Source of the DNA: Giardia intestinalis
Taxonomy: Eukaryota
Strand: one strand, 5' to 3'
Assembly (NCBI GenBank): GCA_000002435.2
Contig: CM018789.1
Length of the DNA: 64,000 bases
This document shows positions 10,678 to 37,198 of this stretch, piece after piece; position 1 is the stretch's first letter, and every line of letters starts with the position of its first letter. Under the pieces are notes generated by a model. The model ran no database searches and was not told the origin of the DNA. It saw nothing but the letters and a program-made list of their open reading frames with translations. The position numbers and the translations under genes were made by a program.

Positions 10678-13600
10678 TTAGTCCTTCTTCCACTTAGAAA
10701 TGTCTGAGACCGTCCCAACGGCACCAATGGCATTGTATGCCTCGCGAGAGTTATCCGCTATGCTATTCGGACTAACAACTGTCGGGCTTGTTATCACTGG
10801 GCTGCGAACAGCACGCTCTAGAGCATCTAGCTTGCGTTTCAGAACATCGTTGTTTATGTTCATCCCATTCACCTTGTCCTTCTCATTGGCCAGGCTAACC
10901 TCCAAGTCTCTGAGCTTGCTGGTAAGATCAACTATCTGAGATTTGCTGAGGCTGTCATCGGGAAGCGACATTGAGCTTGTTCCGTATTTTTCGTTTAGAC
11001 TCTTGAGGTGTTCCGAATAGGAAGCATTGAGATCATCAAGATCAGTTATTGCCTGAGACATTTCAACGACCGCGCGACGCTTCTTGACGTCTGAGTTGAT
11101 CATCTCCGCCATTAAACGCTTGTTATCCTCCTCAAGCTCGCGAACCTTGCGAGACAGATCATCAATAGATGAAACATCGGCGAGGAAGACTGCCGAGTCT
11201 GGATTGGCAATGCCGTTTTCATCGCAAAACTTTCGGAGCTTAGTATGGAGGATGTCACGCTCCTTGATCGCCGTGTTGTACTGAACCTTGAGCTTTTCGC
11301 ATTCGTTTTCTGCATCCTGAAGACGCTTTATTGTTGCCGTGATATCACTTGGAATCCTCGCCAGTTCTTCATTTTTCTTGGAAAGCTCGTCCTTTAAAGC
11401 CGCAAGACTGCTCTCCAATTCGCTTACTTGATCGCGCAACGACTGGACAGCCTTAGCATCGGCGCTACCACCAGCTAGAGATTCCTCAAGAGACTTTCGC
11501 AGATTCTCTACCTCAAGTTCTTTGACCCGGAGCTTCTCAAGGAGAAGCTTATCATGCTGGGATGCGTCGACAGCATCCTCCTTTAGGCGCTGGATCTGGT
11601 CTTCACTATTTGCAAGCGCGGCTTGCATATCCGCGATGATCTTGCGAAGCTTGTTGTTCTCATCTTCCCTGATTCCCTGCTTCTCAAGAGAGTCTTGGAG
11701 CAGCACGCGCAGGCGCTCAATTTCGAGATCCTTATTCTTGAGAAGAGACTTATATTCGTTGGTTTGCTGTCTCACGCTTATGAGGTCCTTCGGAAGTGCG
11801 TCGCGGTTCTTGACAATCTCAGCCAGATCTCTCTGATGAGCCTCAGCCTCATTCAAAAGCCTAGCATATTCTTCCGGACTTTTGGTTGGTTGATCAATCA
11901 GCTTAAGCTCTCTCTGGAGGCGAACGATGTCATCGGTAAGAGAAGCAAGGAGAGCCTCCTTGCGAGCACGCTCCTCCGGTGTCATCTCTGTCTCTGGGTC
12001 AGAAAGCGCAGTCTCAGCCTCTTTATGTTGCTCCCTGAGCTTCGCCAGTAGTCCATACTTTTTATAAAGTTCAACCTCGTCAGGCGAGAGACCGTCAAAG
12101 TGCTTTTTGAGTCTAGAATTCTCATCTTCCAAAGCTCTGTAATGATCCTCACGTGTGCTGTTAGCATCCGTACGAAGGCTTTCGATCATGGCCTCACGCT
12201 CACGGAGTGCTTGGCGCATGGTATCAAGCTCCTCTCGCTTTTCAATCACATCTGCCTTGAGCTGTTCAAGATCCTTGCCCATAGCGGAGATCAGCTCGTC
12301 TTTCTTCTTGGTCTCTGCATTGCCATCATCGAGTTTCTTCTTTAGAGCTGCCACCTCCAGTTCATGCTTCTTCAATAAATCGCCGTGCAGTTCATCCATG
12401 GCATGGGCGCCAGCTTCACTGGTTGAAAGTACAGAGTTAGCTGTCGAGTTGGTGAGCGCATCCCGCAGGCTCTTCTCCACGCCACTCTTTGCGATAGACG
12501 CCTCCCTCAGGTGAGTAAATGAACGTTCTTGGTGCATAATCGCTTCGGCAAGGCGCTCCACCTCTTCTTCACGCAAGTCAAGATCCTCCTTCAGCATTTC
12601 AACCTCCATCTCCAGCTCTGCGATACGAAGAATAAGTTCTGCATTAGATCCTTGGTTGGCGTTGCTGATCTTCTTGAGAACTTCCTCGTCATCTCCAACC
12701 TCTGCTTCAACGGGTCGTTCACTGGCCACAATGTCTCCAGAATCTGCAAAAGCCAACTTATCCTTAAGCTCCTCTATTATATCATCTTTGTCTAAGAGCT
12801 CTTTGTTCAGGTCCTTTATTTCCTGAGTCTTTTCAATGACGTGTGCCTTAAGGACATCAATATCCGAGCGTAATGCATTAATCAAATCATCATTAGCGGG
12901 TGCAGCCTCTGCAAACGTAGCAGGCACAGTACCTTGCGTAGCAAGTTGCTCTTTGGTCTTAAAAAGTTCCTCCTTAAGGTCGTTCAGCTCCTCCTCTGTA
13001 GTTCGAAGCTGCTGCTTGAGAGCTGCTTGATCAGCTGTGGAATCATTGCTGCGCAGCCTCTCTATCTCAGCTTCCTTCTCCTTAATCATATTTTGGAGGA
13101 ACATATTATGTGTATTGAGGGCCTCCTTGTCCTTCTCCAAGGCATGGATCCGGCCAGAACCGTCATCGGGCAAATACTTCACCTCATTCAAAGCATCGTC
13201 CAACTTCTGTTGCAGATCATCCAGTTCTCTGTCCTTGTCGCGAATAATATCCTCAAGCTTTACAATAGTGCTCCTAAGGACATTGATGTCCTGAATCTCT
13301 CCTTCGTACATGGCCACGCTCGTGGTGGAGGCTTCCACTGCATCTCCGGTCTTGTTGAGCCGAAGATTGAGTTGCTGGATGGCATCATCACGGGCCTCAA
13401 CAAGCCTCTCAAGGGCGGAGATTCTCTTTACATAAGTCTCTACCTCCTCACGAAGTCTTCGAGTATCCTCACCGTCTGTAAAAGGCTGAGCATTTTGAGC
13501 TGCCTGAAGTGCACGAGTCAGATCTATGACATCCTTTTCCTTCTGAGCGAGCTTTTCCTCGAGGTCCTGGACTGTTGCCTCAAGTGTTCTAAGTCTGTCG

Positions 13601-15540
13601 TCCTCTTCGTAATCAACGAGACCTCGGAGCTTGTCTGCTTCGTCACGTTTGTTTCTGAGCTCTCTCTTGAGTGCATCCACCTCTGCAAGGAGATCCACTT
13701 CGCGCGTGGAGTCCACCACCTGACCTTGCGCGGACAATAAGCTACGGAGCTCCGATATCTGTTCTTCCCTCGCACGGAGTTCTGCACGAAGGTTCTTTAC
13801 TTGAGCCGAGTCATCATCTCTCACCTCAGCAAGCACCCTATTAAGTTCCTCTAGGAGCCTGTTGTATTCCGTTTCGCTTTCAGCAAGCTTTCTGTCCATA
13901 TTTGCTATCTCAATGCCTCTAGAGATAACCAGGGCTCGAAGCCTATCGAGCTCTTCTCTCAAAGCGTCCTCTGCACTGCCACTCTCGGCAACTTTAGCAA
14001 GCATGCTTCGGAGACTCTCATTTTCAGTTCTAAGAGCATCCGCCTCTGCGGCGTCGCAAGCAGCGTGCAGGGCGTCCTGGAGACGGGCAATCTCTGCCTC
14101 CTGGGCTTTAACAGTCTTCTTGAGTTCGTCAATCTCACGTTCCCTCTCAGCAAGGTCTCTACGTAACTGCTCCTCAACTTCCCTAGATGGCGTCGTGCTG
14201 TTAAGAATCTCTAGCTGCTCTTCACTCTCCTTAAGTCGCTCCTTAGTGCGCGCAAGCTCCTCCTCTAATTCTGCAACACGCCGGCTGTTTTCCTGTTCAG
14301 ATGTATTCAAAAGACTACGGAGTTGGACTATCTCCTCATCGCGCTTAGCATACTCGGCAATCGTTGCCTCCTGCTCTTTAGCGTTTGTCACGAGCTCCCT
14401 AAGGCGCTCATTCTCACTCTCTAGATCCCTAACTCGCGTATCAGCGTCTTTCACCACTTTTTCACGGAGACTGTTGAGTTCGGCCTGTGCGGCAGCCAGA
14501 TCTGCTTCTAACTTCTGAACCGTGGCATCCTTAAGAGTTGCTGAGGATGATAAGCCTGACAGCTCAAGATTATTGCGCATGCTCTCGTTGGTGTTCGCAA
14601 GACGCGAGGTGTCTCGAAGAGCAGACGAAGTCGCCATACTATCCTCTACCGTCGCATGGAGAGAGTCTATCTTCTCCTTGTACTCACTGAGCGTCTGCTT
14701 GAGGCGCTTTATCTGGTCTTGAAGAGCGACATTATCGCTGTAAATAGAGGAGGACTCCTCATGCAACGTGACCAGCTTCTGCTCCAGAGCGAGGATTTTG
14801 GCTTCGAGGTCTTTTTCAAGCTGCGTCTTGGAAGCGTTACTAAACACAGGCCCGCCCGGTGAAGTTGCATTACGAAACATGTCAATGGCTTGCAGGCTAG
14901 AGGCAAGATCGCCACCTATCTGTATACTCCCATTCAGGCTCATATTTGACAGGTTCTGTAGGGACTGAGACGTGATTCCAGGAAGCGTATTAGACTCAAA
15001 TTGCCTAAGATAGTTTGCGACGTCAGCATACCCTGCATTTGCAGCAAGAATTAGCGCTGTTTCGTTATTGTGAGACACTATCTCTCTCTCCCTAATAGCC
15101 AGATACTTCACGACGTCGAGGTGCCCCGCCTCCGCCGCATACATCAAGGCAGTTCGGCCACGATTATCCTGTATGGTCTTCTGATATGGCAAAAGATAGA
15201 TTATAGCGTCCATGCAACTGTGCTTTGCAGCCAGCATCAAGGGGGTTCGCCCCTCTGGATCTCTACTAGCCATCTCGTATGATATCAGACGCTTACAGAT
15301 TTCGCCCTGATTAGAGAGTGCTGCCATCATTATTGCCGTCTGTCCATCGGAGTCCGTCATTGAGTGTTCTGTATAAGCAAGAATCTTGACCATATCGACG
15401 TCGCGGTTAGCCACTGCATGCATTAGCCCTGTGCGCCCATCTTTATCCGTGGACCGACCATATTTCTGCAGATTGCTTTTGACAAGCTCGTGGCTTCTGC
15501 CATCTATGGCTGCAAACCAGTCATCCTTGGACTCAAGCAT
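10678..15540 (-). CDS. ankyrin-repeat + long coiled-coil protein (1620 aa), Giardia 21.1/coiled-coil class; paralog 1 of a tandem array
   Basis: ATG verified at 15538-15540 (minus). The N-terminal ~190 aa hold about 5 ankyrin repeats (DWFAAIDG…, GRTGLMHAV…, GQTAIMMAA…, GRTPLMLAA…, GRTALMYAA…, NETALILAA). The remainder is continuous heptad coiled-coil. Confidence 0.85.
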   Translation of the reverse strand: MLESKDDWFAAIDGRSHELVKSNLQKYGRSTDKDGRTGLMHAVANRDVDMVKILAYTEHSMTDSDGQTAIMMAALSNQGEICKRLISYEMASRDPEGRTPLMLAAKHSCMDAIIYLLPYQKTIQDNRGRTALMYAAEAGHLDVVKYLAIREREIVSHNNETALILAANAGYADVANYLRQFESNTLPGITSQSLQNLSNMSLNGSIQIGGDLASSLQAIDMFRNATSPGGPVFSNASKTQLEKDLEAKILALEQKLVTLHEESSSIYSDNVALQDQIKRLKQTLSEYKEKIDSLHATVEDSMATSSALRDTSRLANTNESMRNNLELSGLSSSATLKDATVQKLEADLAAAQAELNSLREKVVKDADTRVRDLESENERLRELVTNAKEQEATIAEYAKRDEEIVQLRSLLNTSEQENSRRVAELEEELARTKERLKESEEQLEILNSTTPSREVEEQLRRDLAEREREIDELKKTVKAQEAEIARLQDALHAACDAAEADALRTENESLRSMLAKVAESGSAEDALREELDRLRALVISRGIEIANMDRKLAESETEYNRLLEELNRVLAEVRDDDSAQVKNLRAELRAREEQISELRSLLSAQGQVVDSTREVDLLAEVDALKRELRNKRDEADKLRGLVDYEEDDRLRTLEATVQDLEEKLAQKEKDVIDLTRALQAAQNAQPFTDGEDTRRLREEVETYVKRISALERLVEARDDAIQQLNLRLNKTGDAVEASTTSVAMYEGEIQDINVLRSTIVKLEDIIRDKDRELDDLQQKLDDALNEVKYLPDDGSGRIHALEKDKEALNTHNMFLQNMIKEKEAEIERLRSNDSTADQAALKQQLRTTEEELNDLKEELFKTKEQLATQGTVPATFAEAAPANDDLINALRSDIDVLKAHVIEKTQEIKDLNKELLDKDDIIEELKDKLAFADSGDIVASERPVEAEVGDDEEVLKKISNANQGSNAELILRIAELEMEVEMLKEDLDLREEEVERLAEAIMHQERSFTHLREASIAKSGVEKSLRDALTNSTANSVLSTSEAGAHAMDELHGDLLKKHELEVAALKKKLDDGNAETKKKDELISAMGKDLEQLKADVIEKREELDTMRQALREREAMIESLRTDANSTREDHYRALEDENSRLKKHFDGLSPDEVELYKKYGLLAKLREQHKEAETALSDPETEMTPEERARKEALLASLTDDIVRLQRELKLIDQPTKSPEEYARLLNEAEAHQRDLAEIVKNRDALPKDLISVRQQTNEYKSLLKNKDLEIERLRVLLQDSLEKQGIREDENNKLRKIIADMQAALANSEDQIQRLKEDAVDASQHDKLLLEKLRVKELEVENLRKSLEESLAGGSADAKAVQSLRDQVSELESSLAALKDELSKKNEELARIPSDITATIKRLQDAENECEKLKVQYNTAIKERDILHTKLRKFCDENGIANPDSAVFLADVSSIDDLSRKVRELEEDNKRLMAEMINSDVKKRRAVVEMSQAITDLDDLNASYSEHLKSLNEKYGTSSMSLPDDSLSKSQIVDLTSKLRDLEVSLANEKDKVNGMNINNDVLKRKLDALERAVRSPVITSPTVVSPNSIADNSREAYNAIGAVGTVSDISKWKKD

Positions 15541-15715
15541 TCAGCACTGGCCCGTTTTATAAATTAAAATGACTTTAATGAATATTTTATGGATAGGCGG
15601 AAAAAGCATTTTTTTGATTTTCCGCAAGCGCCAGAAGGTGCAACCGGGGTGTATCCAAGCTTCAGAGTTCGTTTATTTACAAACAAAGTGGTAATAAGCC
15701 AACTACACAAAACAA

Positions 15716-18700
15716 TTAATGAATAACGGTTTGTAAGAATTGAGCACCAAACACCATACTTGCACCAACACACATTCCAGCAACAAAATTGATGCATCGG
15801 TCTGCTCTTTCCATGACGTCATCGGACTCGTTGACGCTTCGTGGTTTCTCCACATGATCAGAATACTCACTAGCAATCTTATCTGGGATTCTCTGAGATA
15901 ATTTGAGTGTCTCTGCCTGCTGGCGCTCAATCGCAAGCTCCTTAACTTTATCCTCTATCTGCCTTTTGAGGTCCTCCTTCACAGCATTGAGCTGGGAGTT
16001 CTCGGTTCTCAGCCCCTCCAGCTCCCTTGTTAGAGACGTGATAAGTTCTTCAGACTGAGCGCCCGCGGCAATCTGTTTGTTAAGTTGTTGATTTTCAGCT
16101 CGTAACTTCTCAATAACTTCACCGGTAGCTGAGAGCCTGTCCTGAAGAGAGGAAAGCTCCGCCTCCAACGGAGAAATTTGTGCGCCCAAGTTCTCTATAC
16201 GCTGCAGAGCGTCGGTTAGCTCACGTTCCTTCGCGTCTGCACGTTCATTGGCGTCCTTGAGCGCCTGCTCTAAATCAGAGATTCTAACATCGTCTGTGCC
16301 AGTTGCCAAAGAGGGCTCCTCCAAAACAGGAGCAGCAGGCAGAGGTAAATTCTTGGCAGAGCTGGTCTTCATGGCGTTAATTTGATCGTTGAGGATATTC
16401 TTTTCAGTCATTAGCGCCGTAATCTTATTGTTGAGCTTCTTAATGCGTCTTCTTTCAGAATCAAGCAACTCTCGAAGCTCATCCAATGACAGCTCACCTA
16501 GATTCTGGGTACTCCTAGAAGTAGACCTAGCTAGGCTTGGTATCGATGAGAGATCAGGATTAGAAGAGGCACTCTCAATCGTTTTCTCTTCCAGTTCAGC
16601 TTTCAATAAATCTATCTTTGAATTAGCCTCTTCTAATTCTAGGCACTTAGAGCTCAATTGATCCTTAAGGGTTGAAAGTTCATCATTCAACCTCGAAATA
16701 TCTGCGTCAGATGTTGATACTTGTGCATTGATAGCGTCCAGTGACTGCTCCAGATCAATAATAGTTTTGTTGAGTTTAGAAACCTCGTCACGTAGGCTAT
16801 CTCTTTCGGCTGTAACATGAGCCAAATCCTTTCGCAATTCCTCAGTGTCAACATCAGATTTCTTGTCTACTGTACTATCATCAATAAGACGACGTAACTC
16901 ATCAATCTCAGCAGTGCGCGCTTCTAACTCTGCAGTAAGGTCTTGAACTTGTGAGTCAGGGACCTCCTCCTCCAGTGCGCGAATGCGGGCCCTCGCCCCG
17001 GCGCACTCCTGCTCCAGGTCCTGGACGTCCTGGTCGCGCGCCGCAAGCCTGTCGCGGAGCTTGGCTATCTCCTTTTCGTGGCGGGCCGCCTCTTCCTTCA
17101 TGCGCTCCAGCAGGAACGACGAGTCGCCCAGCTCGCCCACGGTCCTCTGGAGGTCTGCGATCTCCTGGGTCTTGAATGCAGCCTCCTTCTGGAGAGCAGA
17201 GAGGCGCTCTTCGAGGGCGTAGACGCGCGCGTCGTCTCCGCTCGGGGCGCCCGACACAGATGCGCGCAAGTCGTCGTTGGCACTAGTCAGGCCGTCGATC
17301 TCTCTTTGGAGGGCGTGGATCTCGTGCGCCTGGAGGCGGTTGACGTTGTGGAGGTTCTTGACCTCGGCCTCGAAGAGGGCGACCTCCTCCTCGTGCTCTG
17401 CGCGATCAACAGTTGTCTCCGCAAGTAGCTTGATATCTCTTTCAAGATCTGCAACACGTTTGCAAAGTAGCTGACGCTCGTTTTCTAGAATGGTTCCGTC
17501 ACTAGGCAAAATAGTTGCGTTGCCTGATGGTTCTAGTGTAATCAGAGGAATCACATTATCTTCAGCGGCTTGATCACGTAGTTGTTGCAGTTCTAGTTCC
17601 CTAAGTTGAAGATTATCTTCTAACTCGGTAATACGTTTTAAGGAATCATCATTCGGATCCATAGGCTGACGAGCCTTGATATCCTCAATTTGTAATTCTA
17701 AATCTTTCAAATCTCTCCTTTTGTCCTTAATTTCATCATCCAATACCTGGATCAGTGCGCGGCGATTCTCCAAAGTTTCTTCTAAGTCCTGGGCTGATGG
17801 CAGTATCGAGCTCTCAATGTGGGCCTTCAATTCGGAAATTTCACCTCTAAGAAGAGCAATATCCTCATCTTTTCTTTGAAGAGTAAGCTGCATAGCAGTT
17901 AATTTTTCATTCAAAGAAGGACTATTGTTAGACAGTAAATCATCTAATTGATGTTGTAATGATGCTACCTCATCGCTCTTCAGCTTTAGCTGAGCCGAAT
18001 AATACTCATTAGACTGTATAAGCATTTGAATATCAGTCTCAGAATCCGCTGGTTGTTTGGTCGACGGTGAGAAATCACCTGCAGTGAACGAGTTCAATTG
18101 ACGTTCATATAGATCACATTTATTCTGTGATTCTTCTAAGGCTTCTGCAACACATGCTAATTCAAATTGGAGCTTGGCAATGTGATCCTCTAAAGAAGTA
18201 ATGAAATTGGATTGCTCAGCGGACAAAGAATCACGAGGTTCTTTTTCTTCAGAGAGAGATTTATCGTTAGAAATGTTGCTATTTAATTTGTCCTGCAGAT
18301 GTGCAACAGCGTCTTCCAGAGTCCGAATGCGAAGTTTCGCCTCAATGTTTTCTTGTTCCAACTCTTGGAAGTCTTGACTATGAGTAGTATCACGAGTAGA
18401 CCCGTCCTGTACGCTCTCCTGCAATTCCAGCAACCTATGATTAGCTTCATCAAGTTGTGCTCTAGTTTCTTTCAGTTTTTCCTCCAAAATCGCTATAGGA
18501 TAATCATCTTCTTTAGTGTCAAGTAAATCACGTAAACGATCAGCTTCCTCGCGTAGTCTTTCATTTTGGTCTTTTAGCGCATCTAGATCCCCCGTTTGTT
18601 TAAGTGAATTTATAGTAAGCAAGGCATTATCGAGAGTATACTCTAATTCAGCCTTCTCTGTTTTGAGACATTCAAGTTGATTCTTCAATTCTAAAAATTC

Positions 18701-21214
18701 AACCTCAGAAACATTGACAGCCAAAGGCTTATCTCGTGATTGACTAGTTGTCATAAGGTGAGATGCATCAGAATCTGTAGTATCAGATACTGCTTCTAGC
18801 GCGCGAATGCGGGCCCTCGCCCCGGCGCACTCCTGCTCCAGGTCCTGGACGTCCTGGTCGCGCGCCGCAAGCCTGTCGCGGAGCTTGGCTATCTCCTTTT
18901 CGTGGCGGGCCGCCTCTTCCTTCATGCGCTCCAGCAGGAACGACGAGTCGCCCAGCTCGCCCACGGTCCTCTGGAGGTCTGCGATCTCCTGGGTCTTGAA
19001 TGCAGCCTCCTTCTGGAGAGCAGAGAGGCGCTCTTCGAGGGCGTAGACGCGCGCGTCGTCTCCGCTCGGGGCGCCCGACACAGATGCGCGCAAGTCGTCG
19101 TTGGCACTAGTCAGGCCGTCGATCTCTCTTTGGAGGGCGTGGATCTCGTGCGCCTGGAGGCGGTTGACGTTGTGGAGGTTCTTGACCTCGGCCTCGAAGA
19201 GGGCGACCTCCTCCTCGTGCTCTGCGCGATCGGCAGCAGCAGCCAGAGACACTTCTCTGAGTTCTTTGAGCTCTTGCTCATATGCATTCTTAACATCATC
19301 AAGGTGTGATACACATCTATGAAGCTCTGCATTATCCGCTTCAAGGCATGAAATACGGTCATGCACCAGTTCAACTTGTGTAGTGAGTTCATTCTTTAGT
19401 GCATCTACCTCAGCCGTACGCGCTACAAGCTGGCTAAGCAACTCTTCGTTTCGGCTTTCAAGGGCTGCAATCCTGCCTTCATCACCAGCAGGCTCCCCAT
19501 TGACAGACTTTTGCAGGTCTTCATTTAGGGCCCTGCACTCATCAAGCTCCTCGGCAAGCTCCCGCAATTTGGACTTCTGGTCGTGAATTTGGTGGCGTAG
19601 TTCCTTAACTTCCTGTTCTTGAGCTTCTGCTTCTGCTTCAAGGATCTGGACGCGATTGCGAAGCATTTCGTTCTCCTCCTGGAGATTGTCTCTCTCAGCA
19701 GACAGGGCAGTAAGTAGTCCAGCAAGATTCTCTCTTTCTTCTGTCCACATGAACTTATCTGCATCATTAGACTGACTCTGCAATTTGCTTTCAAGGTCGT
19801 GAATGCGAACATTTGGGTCTGTCGGGCTTTGAGAGTGAGCCTCTTTAGTCATGCTATGCTCATCTGCTCCTGTTTCTATCTTATCTGATGGCGAAAATTG
19901 ATTATCAGCTGAACAAATCCGACCGCGCAACTCTTCAATGGTGGCGTTAAGCGTCTTGTAAGCATCAATCTGCTCAGAAAGCTGCTTCTTCAGATCATCA
20001 ATGATCCTATCCTTTTCCTCTACTTCCCTGGCAAGTCTCTCGGAAAGCTCAGATGAATCGTGAGCTGGAAGCGCAGCAATTTTCATTTTTAGTGCGGCAA
20101 TCTCATCATTCTTCTCCAAAGATTCTGTGGGTGCGCCAGGGGGATCGGGAGCAATCGATAGCTCTAGGGCGCCGTATCTCTGGCCAAAATCGGCTTGAGA
20201 CTCAGAAAGCATATTATTCGACTGCAAGTCGCGCAACGTCTGCGTCATGTCAGTCAACTCTTTTACCTGCTCCGCCGTATCTTGGTGGCATCTTCGCTCA
20301 TCATCGAGCTCCAATTTGAGCTCCTGATTGTGACGGAGAAGCTCCTGGATACGCTCATGAAGACGCTTGTTTTCCACTTGCAAATTAGCATTACGACTCA
20401 TAAGTTCGGATGCATCCTCATGAAGCTTTCCTATTCGTGTCTTCAGTTCCAAATTCATTGTGTTAAGTTCAGAAAGTGCAATGGCCTTTGTTGTCTCCAG
20501 GCGTTCAGAGAGGTCAGCCTGGCTCATAATCAAGTCAGAAGTGCTTGAATCCTGAGACGCAGTAGAGTGGTTGAGAAGATTCGACGGTACCAGTGAGGCA
20601 TCTAGATCTGTGCGGCGAGACATACTAAGGCGTGCGCTTTCAGATAGCATCGCCATTGTGTCCTCTTCTGATGATCGTAGAAACTCCACCACATCATGAT
20701 GGTGATGCATGATTGCAATAGAAAGGGCAGTCTCATGCTCCGAAGAGGAAAACTTACACTCGCGAGCGTGCAAGATTTCCACGATAGAAAGATCTCCGCG
20801 TGCGGCCGCATACATAAGAGCTGTGCGTCCACGACTATCTACTTTGGTGACGTAGTAAGGCATAAGGGCTTTTGCTGCATCCAGAGAGCCATTCTGTGCA
20901 GCAAGCATAAGAGGGGTGCGCCCATCTGGAAGGATCAGATGCGACTCCTTAGCTACCAGCGCACGGCAGCACCTGGCCTTATTAACGATCGCAGCGATCA
21001 TAAGAGCGGTAAGCCCATCAGAATTCGTAAACCCACTACCATTATGAAGCAGAACCTTTACAGCATCGTAATTGTCGCTACGAACAGCGCGCATAAGGGC
21101 AGTCTCTCCATTCTCATCACGCAGAGACGCACACTCGCTCGCCGCCGCACGAATAGTCGCTATGTCGCCCTGGTCGACCGCAGCAAACCATGTTCCCACG
21201 CTAGGCGGAGCCAT
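15716..21214 (-). CDS. ankyrin-repeat + long coiled-coil protein (~1832 aa from first ATG); paralog 2 of the tandem array, containing a perfect 433-bp internal direct repeat
   Basis: The ORF track starts at a TTG (21253); the first in-frame ATG is verified at 21212-21214 (MAPPSVGTWFAAVDQGD…). The ankyrin head is homologous to the two neighbours (…GRTPLMLAA…GRTALMYAA…), followed by a coiled-coil tail. Confidence 0.85.
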   Translation of the reverse strand: MAPPSVGTWFAAVDQGDIATIRAAASECASLRDENGETALMRAVRSDNYDAVKVLLHNGSGFTNSDGLTALMIAAIVNKARCCRALVAKESHLILPDGRTPLMLAAQNGSLDAAKALMPYYVTKVDSRGRTALMYAAARGDLSIVEILHARECKFSSSEHETALSIAIMHHHHDVVEFLRSSEEDTMAMLSESARLSMSRRTDLDASLVPSNLLNHSTASQDSSTSDLIMSQADLSERLETTKAIALSELNTMNLELKTRIGKLHEDASELMSRNANLQVENKRLHERIQELLRHNQELKLELDDERRCHQDTAEQVKELTDMTQTLRDLQSNNMLSESQADFGQRYGALELSIAPDPPGAPTESLEKNDEIAALKMKIAALPAHDSSELSERLAREVEEKDRIIDDLKKQLSEQIDAYKTLNATIEELRGRICSADNQFSPSDKIETGADEHSMTKEAHSQSPTDPNVRIHDLESKLQSQSNDADKFMWTEERENLAGLLTALSAERDNLQEENEMLRNRVQILEAEAEAQEQEVKELRHQIHDQKSKLRELAEELDECRALNEDLQKSVNGEPAGDEGRIAALESRNEELLSQLVARTAEVDALKNELTTQVELVHDRISCLEADNAELHRCVSHLDDVKNAYEQELKELREVSLAAAADRAEHEEEVALFEAEVKNLHNVNRLQAHEIHALQREIDGLTSANDDLRASVSGAPSGDDARVYALEERLSALQKEAAFKTQEIADLQRTVGELGDSSFLLERMKEEAARHEKEIAKLRDRLAARDQDVQDLEQECAGARARIRALEAVSDTTDSDASHLMTTSQSRDKPLAVNVSEVEFLELKNQLECLKTEKAELEYTLDNALLTINSLKQTGDLDALKDQNERLREEADRLRDLLDTKEDDYPIAILEEKLKETRAQLDEANHRLLELQESVQDGSTRDTTHSQDFQELEQENIEAKLRIRTLEDAVAHLQDKLNSNISNDKSLSEEKEPRDSLSAEQSNFITSLEDHIAKLQFELACVAEALEESQNKCDLYERQLNSFTAGDFSPSTKQPADSETDIQMLIQSNEYYSAQLKLKSDEVASLQHQLDDLLSNNSPSLNEKLTAMQLTLQRKDEDIALLRGEISELKAHIESSILPSAQDLEETLENRRALIQVLDDEIKDKRRDLKDLELQIEDIKARQPMDPNDDSLKRITELEDNLQLRELELQQLRDQAAEDNVIPLITLEPSGNATILPSDGTILENERQLLCKRVADLERDIKLLAETTVDRAEHEEEVALFEAEVKNLHNVNRLQAHEIHALQREIDGLTSANDDLRASVSGAPSGDDARVYALEERLSALQKEAAFKTQEIADLQRTVGELGDSSFLLERMKEEAARHEKEIAKLRDRLAARDQDVQDLEQECAGARARIRALEEEVPDSQVQDLTAELEARTAEIDELRRLIDDSTVDKKSDVDTEELRKDLAHVTAERDSLRDEVSKLNKTIIDLEQSLDAINAQVSTSDADISRLNDELSTLKDQLSSKCLELEEANSKIDLLKAELEEKTIESASSNPDLSSIPSLARSTSRSTQNLGELSLDELRELLDSERRRIKKLNNKITALMTEKNILNDQINAMKTSSAKNLPLPAAPVLEEPSLATGTDDVRISDLEQALKDANERADAKERELTDALQRIENLGAQISPLEAELSSLQDRLSATGEVIEKLRAENQQLNKQIAAGAQSEELITSLTRELEGLRTENSQLNAVKEDLKRQIEDKVKELAIERQQAETLKLSQRIPDKIASEYSDHVEKPRSVNESDDVMERADRCINFVAGMCVGASMVFGAQFLQTVIH
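16977..17409. repeat. direct repeat unit A (433 bp, GC-rich) inside CDS 15716-21214
   Basis: Nucleotide stretch gcgcgaatgcgggccctcgccccggcgcactcctgctccagg…ctctgcgcgatc is reproduced identically 1824 bp downstream. Three different reading-frame translations (16983-17222 = 18807-19046; 17098-17283 = 18922-19107; 17078-17408 = 18902-19232) are identical residue for residue. Confidence 0.9.
18801..19233. repeat. direct repeat unit B (433 bp), identical to 16977-17409
   Basis: Same as above. The offset of 1824 bp (608 codons) keeps the coding frame, so the encoded ~144-aa coiled-coil segment (…EHEEEVALFEAEVKNLHNVNRLQAHEIHALQREIDGL…ARARIRALE) occurs twice in the protein. Confidence 0.9.
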
Positions 21215-21310
21215 ATATTTACTGAAACACTCGCCCTTTAAAATGAAATTCAAACTTTATCATGACGGGTAACAGGGGCCCGCACGCAAAACGCAGAGTT
21301 CACTAGCGGC

Positions 21311-24300
21311 CTACTGGAGGTCCAGGGCCGAGAGGTTGTCGTCGAGGACGACGATGCCGGCGCGGATGTCGTCCACAAGCTTCTTGTAGTACTCGACGGC
21401 CTTCCGGAGGTTGCCCGTCTCGCTGATGGCCTTGCCGCACTCGTCCGTCTTCTGCGCAAGGTCCTCGTTGGCCTTGTCGAGCGACTCCTGCAGCGAGGCG
21501 ATCTCTGCCTCGAGCGCCATGGTGCGCTCGTCGTTTGCGGAGTGGAGGTTGGCGTCGCGGGCCTCCTCCAGCTCCCTGTTCAGGGCCTCGATCTGGGCGC
21601 TGACCTCCGCATTCTTGCCCTCCTGGTCGTCGAGAAGGCCCTGGAGCTCCGTGATGGTGTTCTCGCGGTCGTCGAGCTCCTCCTGGAGCTTCCTGAGCTC
21701 CTCCTGCAGGCTCTCGACGACGGCCGGGTCGATGTCGTTCGCCGTGTTCTTGAGCACCTCGACCTCCTCCTGGAGATCCGCGATCTGCTTCCTGCTCTCG
21801 TCCAGGGAGCACTGGAGAGCGGTGATCTTGTCGTTGTTGGCGCTGTCCAGCTTGATCATCTCGTCCTTGAGGTCGCTGCACTGCTGCTTGAGGCCGTCGA
21901 TCTCGTCCTGGAGCTCGTCGATGAGGGACCGCTTGGCCTCGAGTTCGTCCTTCAGCGCTGCGTTCTCGTCCTGGACCTCCCGGAGGGCCGCAGCATCCCC
22001 GACCTCCTCGCCGGACTCCGGATAGACGGTGGTCGCGGTGGGCTGGGCCTCCAGCTGTTCGCGCAGCTCGGCGATCTCGGCGTCCTTGTCCTTGAGCCCG
22101 TCGTTGAGGACCGCGATCTCGTCATCGAGCTCTGCGATCCTCTCCTTGAGGTCGTCGTACTCCTCGGTGTCGCGGAGCCTCTGCTTGAGCTCGTCGATGG
22201 TGGCGTCCCGCTCCGCCACAAGCTCCTTGGCTCCGCTGAGGTCCTTCTCGAGCTGCTCGACGAGCTTCTGGAGGTCGCCGTCTGCTGCCCTGGAGTCGCT
22301 GAGAGCGTGGAGCTTGTCCTGGAGGGCCTCGGCGCTCTCCCTGAGCTCGCGCACGGTGGCCTCGCTGGCCTCGAGCTTGTTTGCGAGCTCGGGGTCCGCA
22401 GTCGCAAGCTCGGCCCGGAGCCCCTCCGTCTCCATCTCCTTGGCCTCGAGCGCGGCGCGCAGCTCTGCAAGCTCCTTGCGCGCGTCCTGGAGCTGGTCCT
22501 CGAGCATCCGGACGCGCTCGGTGTCCTCGGGCACCTGGGCGGTCTCGAGCTGGACCCGGAGTCCGCCCAGCTCCTCGCGGAGGCGCGCGGCCTCGGCGTC
22601 GCTGTCGACGAGGTTCTTGTGGACGGCGTCGATCTCGGCGAGCTTGGCGCTGAGCTGCCCGCGGAGCTCTGCCACCTCGTTCTCGAGGGAGGCAACCCGA
22701 GCCTTCGCAAGCTCCGCGCCGTCGTCATCGGTGACGGCTCTGAGGCCTGTCGTCGCGCCCGCGAGCTCGGCGTCCTTGCTGGCGAGCTGGGCGAGGAGGC
22801 TGTCGACCATCTCCTTGCTCTCGCCGAGTTTGGTCTTGTAGCCCTCGACCTCGGCGAGGAGCTCGCTAAGCCGCTCGGTGTTCTCGACGCTGGCGCGGAC
22901 AATGGCAAGCTCCTTCTCGAGTTGCTCGATGGTCTCGTCCTTGCCTCTCGCCGCGTCGGTCAGCTCGTCGACGCGGCTGCGAAGGTCGGCAACCTCCTGG
23001 CGCAGGGCCGCGACCTCGCCCTGGTCCTGTGGGGCGCCGAGGTCCTTGCGCAGGCTCTCCACCAGGTCTGTCAGGTCCCGGACCTGCTTCATGAGCCGCT
23101 CCTTGTCGCCCTCCAGGGAGTCGCTCCTCAGCTTGCCGTTGCGCAGGTCCTCCTTGAGCGCATCCATCTCCGCCATGATCCGCGCGTGCTCACCCTTGTA
23201 GTGGTCGTTCTCGCCGGTGAGGGCGTTGACGAGGGCCTGCAGCTCGTCGACCTTCTGGACCAGGCCGTCGTCGAAGTCGAGGATGCTCGAGACCTTGGCC
23301 TGCTCCTCGGGGTCGACGTCGCTGATCTCCGTCTGGGCGTCGACGTACTCCGCACCGGACTGGTCGGACGGCGCCACGCTGAGCGGCTTCTCGCGGAGCT
23401 CGCAGAGGGCGTCGTTGAGCTGCCTCACCTCGTCCTCGAGGCGGCGGAGGCTGTGCTCCTTGTCGGCGACCTCCTTGCCCTTGTCTGCAGCGAGCTGCTC
23501 GAGCTCGGCGAGTCGCGCGGTCTTCTCTTCAAGTCCTCGGATTGCGTCGTCGCGCGCGGCAACGGTGCCCCGGAGGTCCGCGATCTCATCCTCGAGGATC
23601 TTGATGCGCGCGTCGTCTTGGGGCACGGTGCTGTCAAGCTGGGCCTTGAGGTCCGCGATGAGGCTCTCCTTCGCGTCCAGGGCGCCGTTGAGCCTGTTGA
23701 GCTCGTCCTTCTGCTCGCGGTTCTGGCCGTGCATGACCTCGAGCTCCTCGTTGAGGACCTGGACCTCCTCCCTGAGCGCGTCGAGTTCCTCCTTGAGCCT
23801 GTCGAGGTCCTCGGAGGATGCGCCGGGCTCCTCGGTGTAGACCGTCGAACCCACTGGTTTCTGCTCGAGCTCCCTCCGCATGTCCTCCATCTCGGCCACC
23901 GCGCAGTCGTACCTGTCCTTGAGCGAGAGGAGCTGCTCCTGCGCGTCCTCCAGCTGCTCCTGGAGCTCGACAAGTTTCTCCACGTCGCTTGCGTCTCCGC
24001 TCGCCCGGGCGTTGGCGAGCGCCTCCTTGAGGTCAGAGACCTCCTTGTTGAGGTGGGCGACCTGGCCGCGGAGTCCGCTGGCCTCGTCTGCACCGCTCTT
24101 CCTGAGGGCCTCAAGCGCGTCATTGAGGGCCTGGAGCTCGTCTTTGAGTCGGCCGTTCTCCTCCTCCAACGCGGTGAGCTGCGCCGGGTCGGCCTCGACC
24201 GGCTGGGCGGGCGCGCCGTCGACGAGCTCCTTGAGCTCTGCGATCTGGTTATCGCGCGCCTCGATCTCATCGGTCAGCGCCCTGATCTTCTCCTCGAGGG

Positions 24301-26194
24301 CGCGGATGGCCGTCTCGTCTGCGGGGGCGTCGCGCGACCTACCGCTGAGCTCCTTGACCTGCTGCTGGAGCTCCTCGATGCGTGCAAGGTACTCTGCAGC
24401 GTCTGCTCCCCGCGTGGCGTCTGCCTCCAGGGCGTCCACCCTTTCCTGGAGAGCCGCGCTGTTCTTCATCTCCTCCTGGATGCGGTCGCGGAGGAGCTCG
24501 ATCTCGTCGTCGCGCTCGTCGATGTCCTGCTTCGCGTTGGCGAGCTCGAACTGGAGGTCTGCGATCTGCTCGTTGAGCTCCTTGACCCTCTCGTCGTCGC
24601 CGCCCTGCGCGTCGGCGAGGAGCCTCTCCAGCCCTGCGATCTGCGCCTCGAGCTGGGCCACGCGTTTATCGCCCTCGGCAGACGACCTCTGGGCGCTCTC
24701 TGCGCGCATGACGAGGTCCTGGAGGCGGGCGATCTCCGAGTTCTTGGCGGCGATGATGGCGTCGAAGTCCGCCGCCTCGCCTCCCCTGGCCAGGGTCTCC
24801 TCGAGGCGGCTCTGGAGGGCCTCGAGCTCCCCGTCCTTGGCGAGGAGGGCCTGGCGGAGGCTCTCGACCTCCTCCTCGAGAATCTGCGTGGCGTACGCCT
24901 CGTCCTGGCTGGCGGCTGCCTGTTCCAGCTCGGCAATGCGTGCGTCGCGCTCATCGAGCATGGACCGGAGGCCTGCGAGTTCGTCCTCGAAGGCCCTGGT
25001 CTTCTCGACGATGGGCCGGAGCCCCGAGAGGTCGGACTCGCGCGCCTCCAGCTCCTCCCGGAGGGCGCTGATCTTGTTTTCGTAGTCTGCGAGGAGGGCC
25101 GCGTCTCCCGTGGGCGACGGGACGGCGGTCAGGCGCTCGTTGAGGGCGCGGATGTCCCTCTCCTTCTCCGCGAGCTCGGACTGGAGCGCCCTGATCTTGT
25201 CCTTGAGGCCGTCGACGTCCTCACCAGACCCGCCGGCGCTGAGCATTCCCTCCATGTCGGAGAGACGCTCCTTGAGGTCGCTGATGATGGCGTCCTTGTC
25301 GGCCGTCTCGGACTGGAGCCTGCTGATTTCGATGCGCAGCGTGGTGATGTTCTCCTCCATGTTCTTGACCTGGCCGTGCAGGGAGACGTTTTGGCCGATG
25401 ACGATCGACGACTCGTCGTGCAGCGAGGCCAGCTTCAGCTCGAGTTGCATGATCTTGGACTCGAGCTCGTGCTCGAGCTGCGTCTTGGTCTGCGTGAGGG
25501 AGTCAGCCTGTCCGCCGGGGAAGCGGTGCGCGTCGATCAGAGAGAATGACAGGGAGAGGTCGAGGGCGGGGTTTCCGACCTGGGACGAGGAGAAGTTCAT
25601 GAGCGAGGGGCGGGTGAACTCCGGAATCAGGTTCGCCTCATAGGACGCGAGGCACTGGACGATGTCGGTGTGCCCGTTCTCGGCCGCGAGCACGAACGCC
25701 GTCTTGTGGTCGTACGAGACGATCTCCTTCTCGCGGACCACGAGGAGCTTCACCACGTCCGTGTGGCCGGCCGCCGCCGCGTACATCAGGGCGGTGCGCC
25801 CGCGCGCGTCTGTCTTGGCCTTGAGGTAGGGGAGCAGGTTGCTGACCGCCGCGGTCGACCCGTGCTCGGCGGCGAGCATGAGGGGCGTCATCTGGAAGTC
25901 GCCGTAGGTGGTGTTGACCTCATAGGCGACGAGGCGCTTGCAGACGTCGCCCTTGTTGGCCTCGGCGGCGATCATGATGGCGGTCTTCCCCTCGCCGTTG
26001 ACCATGCCGTTCTCGAAGAAGCCGAGGATCTTGACAAGCTCCACGTTCCCTTCGCGCGCGGCGATCATCAGGCCCGTCTCGCCGTCACCGTTGACGGACT
26101 TGGCGTACTCTGCTGCGTGGTTGCGGATCAGCTCGACCTGGCCGGCCTGGATGGCCTCAAACCATTCCTCCACAGAAGACACCACTGCAGGCAT
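21311..26194 (-). CDS. ankyrin-repeat + long coiled-coil protein (1627 aa); paralog 3 of the tandem array, strongly GC-rich codon usage
   Basis: ATG verified at 26192-26194 (minus). The head (MPAVVSSVEEWFEAIQAGQVELI…GETGLMIAA…GKTAIMIAA…MTPLMLAA…GRTALMYAA…KTAFVLAA) is homologous to paralogs 1 and 2, followed by a ~1400-aa heptad tail. The sequence is visibly far more G+C-rich than its neighbours. Confidence 0.85.
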   Translation of the reverse strand: MPAVVSSVEEWFEAIQAGQVELIRNHAAEYAKSVNGDGETGLMIAAREGNVELVKILGFFENGMVNGEGKTAIMIAAEANKGDVCKRLVAYEVNTTYGDFQMTPLMLAAEHGSTAAVSNLLPYLKAKTDARGRTALMYAAAAGHTDVVKLLVVREKEIVSYDHKTAFVLAAENGHTDIVQCLASYEANLIPEFTRPSLMNFSSSQVGNPALDLSLSFSLIDAHRFPGGQADSLTQTKTQLEHELESKIMQLELKLASLHDESSIVIGQNVSLHGQVKNMEENITTLRIEISRLQSETADKDAIISDLKERLSDMEGMLSAGGSGEDVDGLKDKIRALQSELAEKERDIRALNERLTAVPSPTGDAALLADYENKISALREELEARESDLSGLRPIVEKTRAFEDELAGLRSMLDERDARIAELEQAAASQDEAYATQILEEEVESLRQALLAKDGELEALQSRLEETLARGGEAADFDAIIAAKNSEIARLQDLVMRAESAQRSSAEGDKRVAQLEAQIAGLERLLADAQGGDDERVKELNEQIADLQFELANAKQDIDERDDEIELLRDRIQEEMKNSAALQERVDALEADATRGADAAEYLARIEELQQQVKELSGRSRDAPADETAIRALEEKIRALTDEIEARDNQIAELKELVDGAPAQPVEADPAQLTALEEENGRLKDELQALNDALEALRKSGADEASGLRGQVAHLNKEVSDLKEALANARASGDASDVEKLVELQEQLEDAQEQLLSLKDRYDCAVAEMEDMRRELEQKPVGSTVYTEEPGASSEDLDRLKEELDALREEVQVLNEELEVMHGQNREQKDELNRLNGALDAKESLIADLKAQLDSTVPQDDARIKILEDEIADLRGTVAARDDAIRGLEEKTARLAELEQLAADKGKEVADKEHSLRRLEDEVRQLNDALCELREKPLSVAPSDQSGAEYVDAQTEISDVDPEEQAKVSSILDFDDGLVQKVDELQALVNALTGENDHYKGEHARIMAEMDALKEDLRNGKLRSDSLEGDKERLMKQVRDLTDLVESLRKDLGAPQDQGEVAALRQEVADLRSRVDELTDAARGKDETIEQLEKELAIVRASVENTERLSELLAEVEGYKTKLGESKEMVDSLLAQLASKDAELAGATTGLRAVTDDDGAELAKARVASLENEVAELRGQLSAKLAEIDAVHKNLVDSDAEAARLREELGGLRVQLETAQVPEDTERVRMLEDQLQDARKELAELRAALEAKEMETEGLRAELATADPELANKLEASEATVRELRESAEALQDKLHALSDSRAADGDLQKLVEQLEKDLSGAKELVAERDATIDELKQRLRDTEEYDDLKERIAELDDEIAVLNDGLKDKDAEIAELREQLEAQPTATTVYPESGEEVGDAAALREVQDENAALKDELEAKRSLIDELQDEIDGLKQQCSDLKDEMIKLDSANNDKITALQCSLDESRKQIADLQEEVEVLKNTANDIDPAVVESLQEELRKLQEELDDRENTITELQGLLDDQEGKNAEVSAQIEALNRELEEARDANLHSANDERTMALEAEIASLQESLDKANEDLAQKTDECGKAISETGNLRKAVEYYKKLVDDIRAGIVVLDDNLSALDLQ

Positions 26195-26298
26195 GTTTTA
26201 TTATCCAGATAGTGTAAAGGTCCATTCGATTTTAAATTCACTTCCCGCCTCTCAGATGCGGCCGGCGTGCGCTGTGTATGCAGCCGGACCCGCTTGCA

Positions 26299-33602: not shown

Positions 33603-34712
33603 ATGTACTTAGGTAGTAAATGTGTCGGCTAATATCCATCCGCCCTCCGAGGCCTCGTCGCAGCTCTGCCCTGCAGTATGCGCCAGGGGAGCAGCCGGCC
33701 GTCTGGGTGCCGTGTTTGCCAACTGGTTCTCGAGCTCGCGGCTGCCCGGATCCAAGAGGCCCGTGCCGTCTGAGAGTGGCGCGACCGCCGCCCTCTGCCC
33801 CAGCCTTCTCCGCCCGGTGTCCTCGACAGGAAGCGGGCGGCCGGGCTAGGGTTCTTGCGCTATCGTTAGCCGCCACTAGATCCTCTCCTGTGCGGTGCAC
33901 CAGAGCTGGGCCGCCTGCTGTGCACTTAGAGGCCGCACGGATAGCCCGCCCAATCCTGGCCCTCTGAGGGCGGGTGGTTGTGACAGCAGGCAGGGGCTCC
34001 CCTCTACTCCTGCAGAGGGACGACCAGGAGCCCGGTGCGGTCATCGGTGCCTGGGCCTGTGTCTCGTGCAGCGCGGGCTGGAGAGCAGACACAGCCCCCG
34101 ACCAGAGCCCGGCCGCCACAACTGCGATCACCTCATCCACCACCGAAGTAGCTCACTGGAAGCTTAGGGGCACATACAGACACCGCCCCCCGGTCTCCAC
34201 CAGGAGCTCCTCCAGCCCTCACCGCCCCATACCCCTGCCTCACCAACCAGCCGGCCCGCTACGGGACCCAGGTGACCGCGACTGTGGGAGCGCGGCCCGG
34301 GCCACAGCTGACCGGACACCGAGGAGCGGCCAGCGGAGAGCCCGATGGCAGCCCCTGACAGACGGAAGCATCCAAAAAGACGGCGACCCGAGCTTCACCC
34401 ACCACGAAGGAAGACCAAGGAGAGGCGCCACGGGTAGACCAGAGAGTCCGCGAGAAGGCCAGGGCCCTGGACGCACACACCCACGGAGCGACCGAGGAAG
34501 GCGCCGGGCTCCTCGTGTGCCGATAGCGGGGATCCCCTTGCTGCGCCGTCCGCGGCCAGCACTCGTCTCCGGGCACGGCCAAAGGAGCGCGGCTTGTCTG
34601 GGAGCTCTCTGGGCCGCATCTAGGCAGGCGCAGCGAGCACAGGGAGGAGACCCGACCTCCTTCCCCGTCTTCTCCTGCTCCCGGAGCTGGGTGGCGCCGG
34701 GCGTCGGAACCA
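32352..34712. repeat. left arm of ~2.36 kb near-perfect inverted repeat (VSP 3' two-thirds + ~1.1 kb GC-rich flank)
   Basis: Boundaries were located by direct comparison with the reverse complement of 37199-39556. Identity begins at …cgtcacgggctgcgccaagtgcgcg (left 32352 / right ~39556) and ends at …gttcCgacgcccggcgccaccc (left ~34712 / right ~37199). The translated ORF pairs are identical (33130-33612 = 38296-38778; 33323-33595 = 38313-38585; 33066-33332 = 38576-38842; 32426-32737 = 39171-39482). Only a few single-residue differences are visible (C/Y in 33580-34143 vs 37765-38328; A/V in 33622-33849 vs 38059-38286). Confidence 0.9.
33607..33621 (+). promoter_or_regulatory. VSP extended polyadenylation signal ACTYAGRTAGTRAAY
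   Basis: ACTTAGGTAGTAAAT lies 4 nt after the VSP stop codon (gcgTAGatgtACTTAGGTAGTAAATgtg). It matches the conserved Giardia VSP 3' motif, which contains the general AGTRAAY poly(A) signal. Confidence 0.7.
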
Positions 34713-35040
34713 GACGTCCGAGACGCCGCCCGATACGAGGAAGTGGACTAAGAACGTATTTGCTGGAAACCACCTCAGCGATCAACACTGTATCATCCTC
34801 GGAGTCACATACAGTGCCACGGCCGATGGCAAGACAGATTAATCACGTCCCGGAATGCGCCACTCCTATGCCCGCTGCTCTCACAGCCGTCGCCGGCCCC
34901 CAGGTAGTCAACGACCGTGGTGACACCAGCATACATACTTCTGCCTTGTTTACTAGGAGAAGGGCTGTATTGTCCCAGCACGATAGAAACTGGGTACGCA
35001 TACAAGCAAGGCAGACAGGAGAAGACATTGATCTGCGCCG

Positions 35041-37125: not shown

Positions 37126-37198
37126 GTGGAAGTAGTGTTTGCTTGTTACCTCCTATTCGAGTAAATCTTTCGATTAAAGCGAGTCCCCATGCGCCTCG

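Follow-up and report, generated by a model that had tools for sequence, protein, structure and literature searches.

Why do neighbouring genes that encode proteins of one family differ sharply in base composition? The question is raised by a 64,000-nt stretch of Giardia intestinalis DNA (assembly GCA_000002435.2, contig CM018789.1; G. duodenalis assemblage A, WB), hereafter the window, which also holds variant-specific surface protein (VSP) genes, a gene for cytosolic HSP70 and other Giardia genes. Three large genes of the window, here called A, B and C, encode proteins with an ankyrin head and a coiled-coil tail, and C is the gene of GASP-180, an axoneme-associated protein. Together with the unrelated gene D, they form a series of four large minus-strand genes arranged head to tail in the order D, C, B, A, with gaps of 104 nt (D–C), 96 nt (B–C) and 175 nt (A–B); the open reading frame (ORF) of B stays open to position 21253, where it has a TTG start, the first ATG being at 21214, and the B–C gap measured to this ORF is 57 nt (Table 1). 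The explanation to which we give a somewhat better than even chance has two layers. In the first, GASP-180 would be subject to the C- and G-ending codon bias of highly expressed Giardia genes. In the second, a block of ~6.6 kb present on two chromosomes would be kept nearly identical, and any sequence having a conversion partner would be pushed toward G and C by GC-biased gene conversion.

The contrast itself is large. The GC content of third codon positions (GC3) is 0.917 in C, compared to 0.521 in A and 0.477 in B (overall GC 0.665, 0.494 and 0.484, respectively); it is 0.46 in D, and the published genome mean is 0.517. A preliminary description of this DNA, made from the letters only, had the distal copy written almost entirely in GC-ending codons, and the calculated values bear this out. 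It also ranked the first copy as intermediate and the middle one as AT-rich, which does not hold: the GC3 values of A and B hardly differ, and B is a mosaic. In sliding windows, C is uniformly GC-rich (GC3 0.87–0.97 over 4.9 kb), with an abrupt drop at its stop codon. On the other side, the GC-rich domain extends ~1.6 kb past C into the unrelated gene D, of which the preliminary description makes no mention; here, the first ~1090 codons have GC3 of ~0.36 and the last ~536 codons of ~0.68–0.75. The maximum-likelihood change-point of this ramp lies 536 codons before the stop (likelihood-ratio statistic 158). Gene B, in turn, carries two islands with GC3 of 0.86 on a background of 0.31–0.41, and has GC3 of 0.41 if the repeats described below are removed. 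The same ramp in D and the same two islands in B are seen in P15, where C has GC3 of 0.95; in assemblage B, it is 0.89–0.90, and the range for C across the three assemblages is 0.89–0.95.

The GC enrichment is limited to sequence that has a paralogous partner. The 90% cluster of D contains a WB ORF of 480 aa, GL50803_0060256 on chromosome 5, and its 495-aa homolog from DH. The WB ORF corresponds to D residues 1147–1626 with 98.1% identity, differing at 9 amino acids, while the D proteins of WB and P15 are 86.9% identical over the same stretch. The higher identity between paralogs than between orthologs serves here as the measure of concerted evolution, although a duplication after the split of the lineages would be compatible with it. 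GL50803_0060256 sits on a chromosome of 4,018,654 nt, which fits NC_051860.1, the sequence with published junction coordinates reaching 3.99 Mb and with the other GASP-180 copy. A paralogous fragment of D had been predicted from the GC ramp before it was discovered. A homolog search with D, aimed at truncated fragments, yielded full-length orthologs only, and the fragments emerged from the cluster membership.

The edges of the duplicated block can be placed on the sequence. Its 5' edge is at least at 27786 as judged from the paralogous fragment, and at ~27910 as judged from the GC3 change-point. The 3' edge, at 21271–21300, follows from where contigs end: one short-read contig identical to WB has its first letter at position 21300, the C/B boundary, at the 3' edge of C, is likewise a break point in three other assemblies, which makes four, and in assemblage B, the last 30 nt of the C-bearing contig (L001) are the first 30 nt of the B-bearing contig (L006), ~35 nt past the C stop. 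The GC richness would run from ~500 codons inside D, through the spacer, to ~40 nt past GASP-180 because the duplicated block spans all of these.

Gene B provides a second case, this time within one ORF. It contains an in-frame direct repeat of 437 nt, whose copies are 99.5% identical and exact over 431 nt, and the 463 codons separating them have GC3 of 0.31. The copies are 99.3–99.5% identical within WB, within P15 and within a third, assemblage-A-like genome (L003), while the identity of the repeat between WB and P15 is 88%; therefore, the copies undergo concerted evolution. The GC3 islands match the directly observed repeat edges with an offset of 0–5 codons in five cases out of five (WB, P15 and L006; three-segment maximum likelihood), the island of copy 1, for instance, spanning codons 665–805. 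On the two-layer explanation, B, whose product is scarce and whose codons lean to A and T, would have two GC-rich islands because exactly two copies of a repeat evolve in concert. We ruled out donation of these islands by C, as there is no DNA similarity between the islands and gene C. In the G. muris ortholog of B (L009, 10001–14566), the repeat module is present three times in diverged form (…DDLEQAVSGHGTGDDARVAVLDD…, …DDLQSSIDGAPHGDDARVRVLDD… and …EDLRQSVLGEPTGEDVRVAVLQQ…), and GC3 is flat at ~0.65. Hence the repeat is ancient, and only in G. duodenalis is it homogenized, with GC islands.

Two short-read orthologs of B (L005, 87–3761, 1224 aa, and L006, 112–3789, 1225 aa) have one copy of the repeat and a precise deletion of 608 codons. 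As L005 is otherwise nucleotide-identical to the window, the one-copy forms are most likely produced by de Bruijn collapse of the exact repeat. We considered them as ancestral single-repeat alleles and set this aside for the same reason, so they are not used as evidence; they may, less probably, represent a real polymorphism caused by recombinational deletion.

The ramp in D differs between lineages. Its change-point is 536 codons before the stop in WB, 517 in P15 and 75 in assemblage B (GS), and the separately assembled C-bearing contig of assemblage B, L001, starts 74 codons before the D stop. In L008, the most divergent lineage, D has no ramp, and the contig ends at the conserved promoter element of C. 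The ramp length (1.6 kb, 0.22 kb and 0) is therefore in step with the extent of the block, while the promoter is conserved. On the ancestral branch of WB and P15, third-position AT-to-GC and GC-to-AT changes are observed in the ratio 98:4 in the ramp and 75:23 in the rest of D (p = 5e-5). The changes in the ramp are mostly transitions, and the gains (59 T>C and 35 A>G) are roughly proportional to ancestral T and A. Non-coding DNA is affected too: the spacer between D and C has GC content of 0.70 in WB, 0.72 in P15 and 0.74 in GS, compared to 0.36 in L008. The polyadenylation signal of Giardia is AGTRAAY, and on this basis we read the conserved element GGAAGTGAATTTAAAAT upstream of C as probably the signal of D (AGTGAAT) followed by the AT-rich initiator of C.

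A regional mutational or chromatin effect without any duplication, such as a transcription- or replication-associated AT-to-GC bias near a strong promoter, would fit the fact that the GC-rich domain is unbroken, with a highly expressed gene at its centre, and that the ramp adjoins the promoter of C. We regard it as very improbable: the two islands of B lie 2–4 kb downstream with AT-rich sequence between them, only the 3' third of D is affected although D is co-directional with C, and the ramp length tracks the extent of the block even though the promoter is conserved.

The identity of C is supported by several agreeing descriptors. According to a published table for the current WB reference, there are two GASP-180 genes, GL50803_0061565 (NC_051856.1) and GL50803_00137716 (NC_051860.1), which agree in exon GC (66.56%) and in a rare 42-nt junction (GTCG/TTGA, TT-CC) located at position 4091. 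Gene C carries the junction GTCG|TT..42 nt..CC|TTGA at position 4091 of its coding sequence (CDS), and its GC is 66.56% once the 42 nt are removed. If the model starts at Met43, the protein has 1585 aa, as in the older model GL50803_137716, and Cys931 becomes the reported Cys889. Thus, the mass, the junction signature, the exon GC and the cysteine offset all agree with those of GASP-180, and at the level of the protein family there is no difference. The exact proteins of three genes of the region are recorded for ATCC 50803 on a chromosome of 1,485,438 nt, and since D is GL50803_0061566, the window carries the chromosome 1 copy of GASP-180. In a 2013 re-annotation table, the same stretch, with identical gene lengths and spacings, is marked as a "gene repeat" that resembles GASP-180 and lacks annotation; C is absent from the 2007 annotation.

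The 42-nt stretch, described as a non-canonical intron of GASP-180, lies at 22104–22145 (CDS nt 4050–4091), is in frame and comprises 14 codons. On the strand opposite to the CDS it reads GTCG|TT…CC|TTGA, and it is flanked by a short direct repeat (sense CCTCAA). An in-frame stretch bounded by a direct repeat points to template switching or slippage and away from splicing.

Genes A, B and C agree in their protein architecture with the preliminary description, which had named three minus-strand genes with homologous ankyrin heads and heptad tails; the ORFs, Pfam, blastp and periodicity all concur. The Ank_2 heads occupy roughly the first 190 residues (E-values 1.8e-37, 5.5e-30 and 2.1e-48 for A, B and C, respectively) and are mutually homologous (A–C 2e-74, A–B 1e-41, B–C 7e-53). 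In the tails, the best hydrophobic period is 3.45–3.5 residues, 66–82% of the 70-aa windows lie above the 95th percentile of shuffled sequences, compared to 5% in the control D, and there are many weak matches to coiled-coil Pfam families. Named full-length matches come solely from Giardia (assemblages of G. duodenalis and G. muris). The other matches with long coverage are Logan/ENA contigs, and organisms other than Giardia match the ankyrin head alone, covering 5–12% of the query. An ankyrin head with a coiled-coil stalk is the architecture of the "head-stalk" family, which is credited to Elmendorf et al. (2005, Int J Parasitol 35:1001). By this sequence resemblance, A, B and C are all members of the known Giardia-specific family, C being GASP-180: they have the same head, the same long stalk and full-length relatives solely in Giardia. 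A and B differ in that the databases name them only "Ankyrin repeat protein 1" and "3", and B has a hydrophobic C-terminus lacking in GASP-180. According to a review, GASP-180 localizes to the anterior flagellar axonemes, a location reported for GASP-180 only among these proteins. The ankyrin head would presumably dock the protein, with the ~1400-aa coiled-coil stalk extending from it. The C-terminus of B (15719–15796, minus strand, ~26 residues) reads …CINFVAGMCVGASMVFGAQFLQTVIH, and its counterpart is kept in the G. muris ortholog (…FVAGLCMGASMTLGAGFIQRFIE). This segment resembles the transmembrane helix of a tail anchor, and B, unlike GASP-180, may be a membrane-anchored coiled-coil tether.

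The assumed common ancestry of the three genes stands, but it is ancient, and the genes are not recent tandem copies. In a neighbour-joining tree of the first 300 residues (200 bootstraps), A pairs with the G. muris protein P0008 and B with P0058, both with 100% bootstrap support. C groups (88%) with the 1039-aa GL50803_16745-like protein and G. muris P0004, and these have a C-terminal motif in common. The pairwise identity among A, B and C is only 25–34%. The orthologs of B and A already adjoin on the same strand in G. muris, with neither C nor D beside them. The nearest relative of C is the unlinked GL50803_16745-like gene, and C has no G. muris ortholog. As G. muris has an ortholog of A and one of B, and C belongs to another subfamily, the array did not arise by a young tandem triplication. 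Judging from the tree and the gene order, B and A are an old pair, and C, from the other subfamily, adjoins it only in G. duodenalis. The adjacency of D and C is kept in assemblages A, E and B, and the order D–C–B is seen in WB and P15. We considered the G. muris "Axoneme-associated protein" as a possible ortholog of C and rejected it: the tree and synteny (SRP68, TP_methylase, Dzip-like) make it the ortholog of the 1039-aa GL50803_16745-like gene, and P0004 is syntenic with that gene, not with C.

The abrupt change of composition, together with the omission of C in 2007, might point to a laterally acquired gene or a misassembled GC-rich insert. We give this hardly any credence, as C nests in the head-stalk family beside GL50803_16745 and G. 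muris P0004, its full-length relatives come from Giardia only, and both its adjacency to D and its high GC3 are kept in the independent assemblies of P15 and GS.

We then turn to expression. Lafay and Sharp are said to have described expression-linked codon bias in Giardia in 1999. The optimal codons end in G or C, and GC3 has been linked to the codon adaptation index (CAI) genome-wide (PMC8393687). C uses the published optimal codons (CTC, GTC, CGC, GGC, ATC, GCC). Its CAI against the published high-expression set is 0.82 and its effective number of codons (ENC) is 31.7, lower than the ~36.9 that Wright's formula gives from GC3 alone; for HSP70, these values are 0.72 and 38.5, and with GC3 of 0.79 HSP70 indeed has the GC-rich look ascribed to it in the preliminary description. 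In the published trophozoite proteome, GASP-180 occupies the first row, with 173 peptides and a normalized spectral count (nSpC) of 4.92, ahead of EF-2 (4.09). In the same data, A (GL50803_41212) has nSpC of 2.19, the 16745-like protein 1.45, and B 0.46. Hence the products of the three genes are unequal, A being ~2.3-fold and B 10–18-fold below GASP-180, whose signal pools two loci. The synonymous divergence between WB and P15 is 0.10 in C, compared to 0.26–0.27 in D and B, and the protein identity is 94% versus 86%. The earlier suggestion of one very highly expressed paralog next to weakly expressed siblings is thus right for C and B and does not extend to A, which is only ~2.3-fold lower and has GC3 of 0.52.

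If expression alone were the cause, the GC3 of C would come from translational selection only, and the ramp in D, the spacer and the islands in B would be unrelated local quirks. Much in C agrees with this: the top-ranked abundance, the CAI, ENC and optimal-codon pattern, the synonymous divergence 2.6-fold below that of the neighbours, the genome-wide link between GC3 and CAI, the GC3 of single-copy HSP70 in the same window, and the fact that the high GC3 of C is older than the ramp. However, the bias is neither confined to expressed coding sequence nor scales with expression. One mRNA cannot be selected piecewise, and B has GC3 of 0.86 in the repeat and 0.31 between the copies; the 98:4 excess of changes from A or T to G or C is confined to the last third of D; the spacer with 70% GC is non-coding; the edges in composition are the edges of duplication; A has nearly equal abundance per locus and is unbiased; and the closest paralog of C has GC3 of 0.48. 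High expression is therefore insufficient as the cause of the contrast, and we consider it improbable as the sole explanation, if still worth serious attention. Compared with the expression-linked bias known in Giardia, the locus shows the same optimal codons and, as in HSP70, a product of top abundance; here, the bias spills into a neighbouring gene and the spacer, forms islands in a low-abundance gene and does not scale among paralogs.

The opposite extreme is that GC-biased conversion explains all of the GC3 of C, its "optimal codons" being a by-product of transition-dominated AT-to-GC change on T-rich third positions. The B repeat has CAI of 0.73 and a ratio C/(C+G) of third-position bases of 0.68 inside a gene of low abundance and low CAI; the gains in the D ramp (T>C and A>G) are near the ancestral proportions of T and A; and the amino acids of C are GC-shifted, with GARP residues (Gly, Ala, Arg, Pro) at 25.6% versus 22.5%, and GC of first codon positions at 0.72 versus 0.64, in the closest paralog. 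On the other hand, GC3 of C exceeds that of the B repeat (0.86) and of the ramp (0.68–0.75), and is uniform at 0.87–0.97 across 4.9 kb. Moreover, synonymous divergence is strongly reduced in C only, single-copy HSP70 reaches high GC3 without duplication, and the ramp shows no C-ending preference (C/(C+G) of 0.50). We find this reading decidedly unlikely. The preference for C- over G-ending codons was tried as a test of selection versus biased conversion and abandoned, because the B repeat looks "selected" in a low-abundance gene and the gains in the ramp mirror ancestral T and A.

We therefore return to the two-layer explanation, for which the suggested "different recombination histories" of the paralogs proved the better clue: C lies in a duplicated block, the B repeat evolves in concert, and the GC3 edges match. 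From this pattern, we infer that the conversion step itself is GC-biased and that the two GASP-180 loci exchange sequence; what relative weight each layer has in C is likewise a matter of inference. In assemblage B, the block takes in just 74 codons of D and so barely enters that gene, but C already has GC3 of ~0.9; its richness is thus older than the ramp.

Several points weigh against this explanation. Given the pre-ramp origin, the richness of C could be mainly selective. C has a strong C-ending preference (C/(C+G) of 0.70), like single-copy HSP70 (0.74), and this preference, the low synonymous divergence and the high abundance are the classical signs of translational selection. Synonymous divergence is not reduced in the D ramp or in the B islands. 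The statement that the two GASP-180 copies are nearly identical is based on the descriptors in the published table, and an exact match for neither the 1627-aa C protein nor its 1585-aa form was found in the protein collection searched; exact look-ups of these two and of D among the genes encoded on contigs gave no record either. The contig breaks are indirect evidence for copy number, in P15 and GS as well, and P15 yielded no second GASP-180 copy. In WB, the duplication may have followed the split of assemblages A and E, and then the ramp common to WB and P15 would need another cause.

Two observations concern the D–C copies in other isolates and drafts. The D-fragment proteins P0193–P0196 (compared to 26299–27741), which come from different isolates, mix residues of chromosome 1 D and of the chromosome 5 fragment, as in MAGEVRKGADESD…DLDTLE…ADILAST, where both types are combined; such mosaics are the pattern that exchange between the two loci would produce. 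In the GS draft contig ACGJ01002869.1 (L007, 9800–11237), the D-linked C departs from L001 ~140 nt before the C stop, identity over the 495 nt in front of that point is just 89%, with frame disruptions, and the next 953 nt match neither B nor the WB C–B region. Either the draft was misassembled here, or this is a second copy that has degenerated. Recurrent annotation gaps and short-read breaks or collapses in this region are accounted for by the two GASP-180 loci, which are indistinguishable, and by the 431-nt exact repeat in B.

Table 1. Features of the window, with positions on the 64,000-nt stretch.
Feature	Position	Strand	Description
Gene A	10678–15540	-	1620 aa; "Ankyrin repeat protein 1", GL50803_41212; GC3 0.52, CAI 0.44; ORF and Ank_2
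Gene B	15716–21214	-	1832 aa from first ATG; "Ankyrin repeat protein 3", GL50803_32999
B repeat, copy 2	16971–17407	-	Codons 1270–1414; 1824 nt (608 codons) downstream of copy 1
B repeat, copy 1	18795–19231	-	437 nt, in frame, codons 662–806; GC3 0.86, CAI 0.73
GC-rich duplicated block	21271–27910	-	~6.6 kb; covers the final ~500 codons of D, the spacer and GASP-180, and extends ~40 nt past it on the 3' side
AGTGAAC, poly(A)-like signal	21298–21304	-	Begins 7 nt past the C stop; just within the 3' edge of the block
Gene C (GASP-180, axoneme-associated protein)	21311–26194	-	1627 aa, 179.3 kDa; chromosome 1 copy, GL50803_0061565
Antisense ORF	21542–25549	+	1335 aa; codon-aligned antisense to C; artefact of C codon usage, not a gene
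Conserved element GGAAGTGAATTTAAAAT	26229–26245	-	Upstream of C; kept in WB, P15, GS, L001 and L008
Non-coding spacer past the D stop	26246–26298	-	About 70% GC
Gene D	26299–31179	-	1626 aa, GL50803_0061566; unrelated to A, B and C; weak CPSF_A-like match
VSP-gene inverted repeat arms	32351–34716 and 37192–39557		2366 nt each, 100% complementary; spacer of 2475 nt
HSP70, cytosolic	49004–50998		Pfam HSP70, E 7e-242; GC3 0.79
Ankyrin protein	53332–54783	+	483 aa; head-like N-terminus, no coiled-coil tail

The long ORF antisense to C exists because TTA, CTA and TCA, which become stops when reverse-complemented, are nearly absent from C (0, 0 and 1 occurrences, compared to 10, 13 and 13 in A). Other long antisense ORFs are present beside it, and they are a trap for gene callers. 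The 483-aa ankyrin protein shares its N-terminal signature (…EEWFSAI…GQTGLM…) with the heads of the head-stalk proteins; in the head tree, it falls outside the clade of A, B and C, beside the G. muris "Ankyrin repeat protein 1". The VSP inverted repeat is another perfectly homogenized, GC-richer repeat in the same window, of the type known as inverted identical VSP pairs of Giardia, and here repetition again coincides with high GC: 0.605 in the arms, 0.512 in the spacer and ~0.445 in the 3-kb flanks. Unlike the genes considered above, the arms encode Cys/Gly/Thr-rich surface proteins, and the comparison is confounded by this amino acid composition.

GC-biased conversion accompanied by concerted evolution is known for ribosomal DNA (rDNA) and multigene families of many eukaryotes (Escobar et al., 2011). 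The locus resembles these systems in that the enrichment is confined to partnered segments, AT-to-GC changes are in excess, both coding and non-coding DNA are hit, and paralog identity is far above ortholog identity. It differs in that Giardia is a diplomonad without observed meiosis, that one of the cases is intragenic, with repeat copies 1.8 kb apart in one ORF, and that the bias of the conversion step is here proposed from the sequence pattern. In the searchable literature on Giardia, a link between conversion and GC content was found only as a passing suggestion for rDNA. The genes and the link between GC3 and expression were already known, while an association of GC3 with concerted evolution that is resolved to the edges seems not to have been described in Giardia. 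A broader conjecture is that much of the well-known GC3 heterogeneity in Giardia is the footprint not of translational selection but of GC-biased conversion between repeats, between blocks and maybe between homologous chromosomes or nuclei; we hold it to be doubtful at present.

If that conjecture is true, the locus would be a natural experiment: it would show directly, with resolved edges, that recombination both between chromosomes and within genes is frequent in an organism whose sexual cycle has never been observed. Three internal controls within 20 kb separate expression from recombination: the B mRNA, in which GC3 varies from 0.31 to 0.86, the unrelated gene D, in which the duplicated third alone is GC-rich, and the spacer, GC-rich only in the lineages with the ramp. 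If the pattern generalizes, codon adaptation indices would be unreliable as proxies of expression in Giardia, and GC3 maps could be read as maps of recombination or gene conversion. This bears on how, and how often, the apparently asexual, binucleate Giardia recombines.

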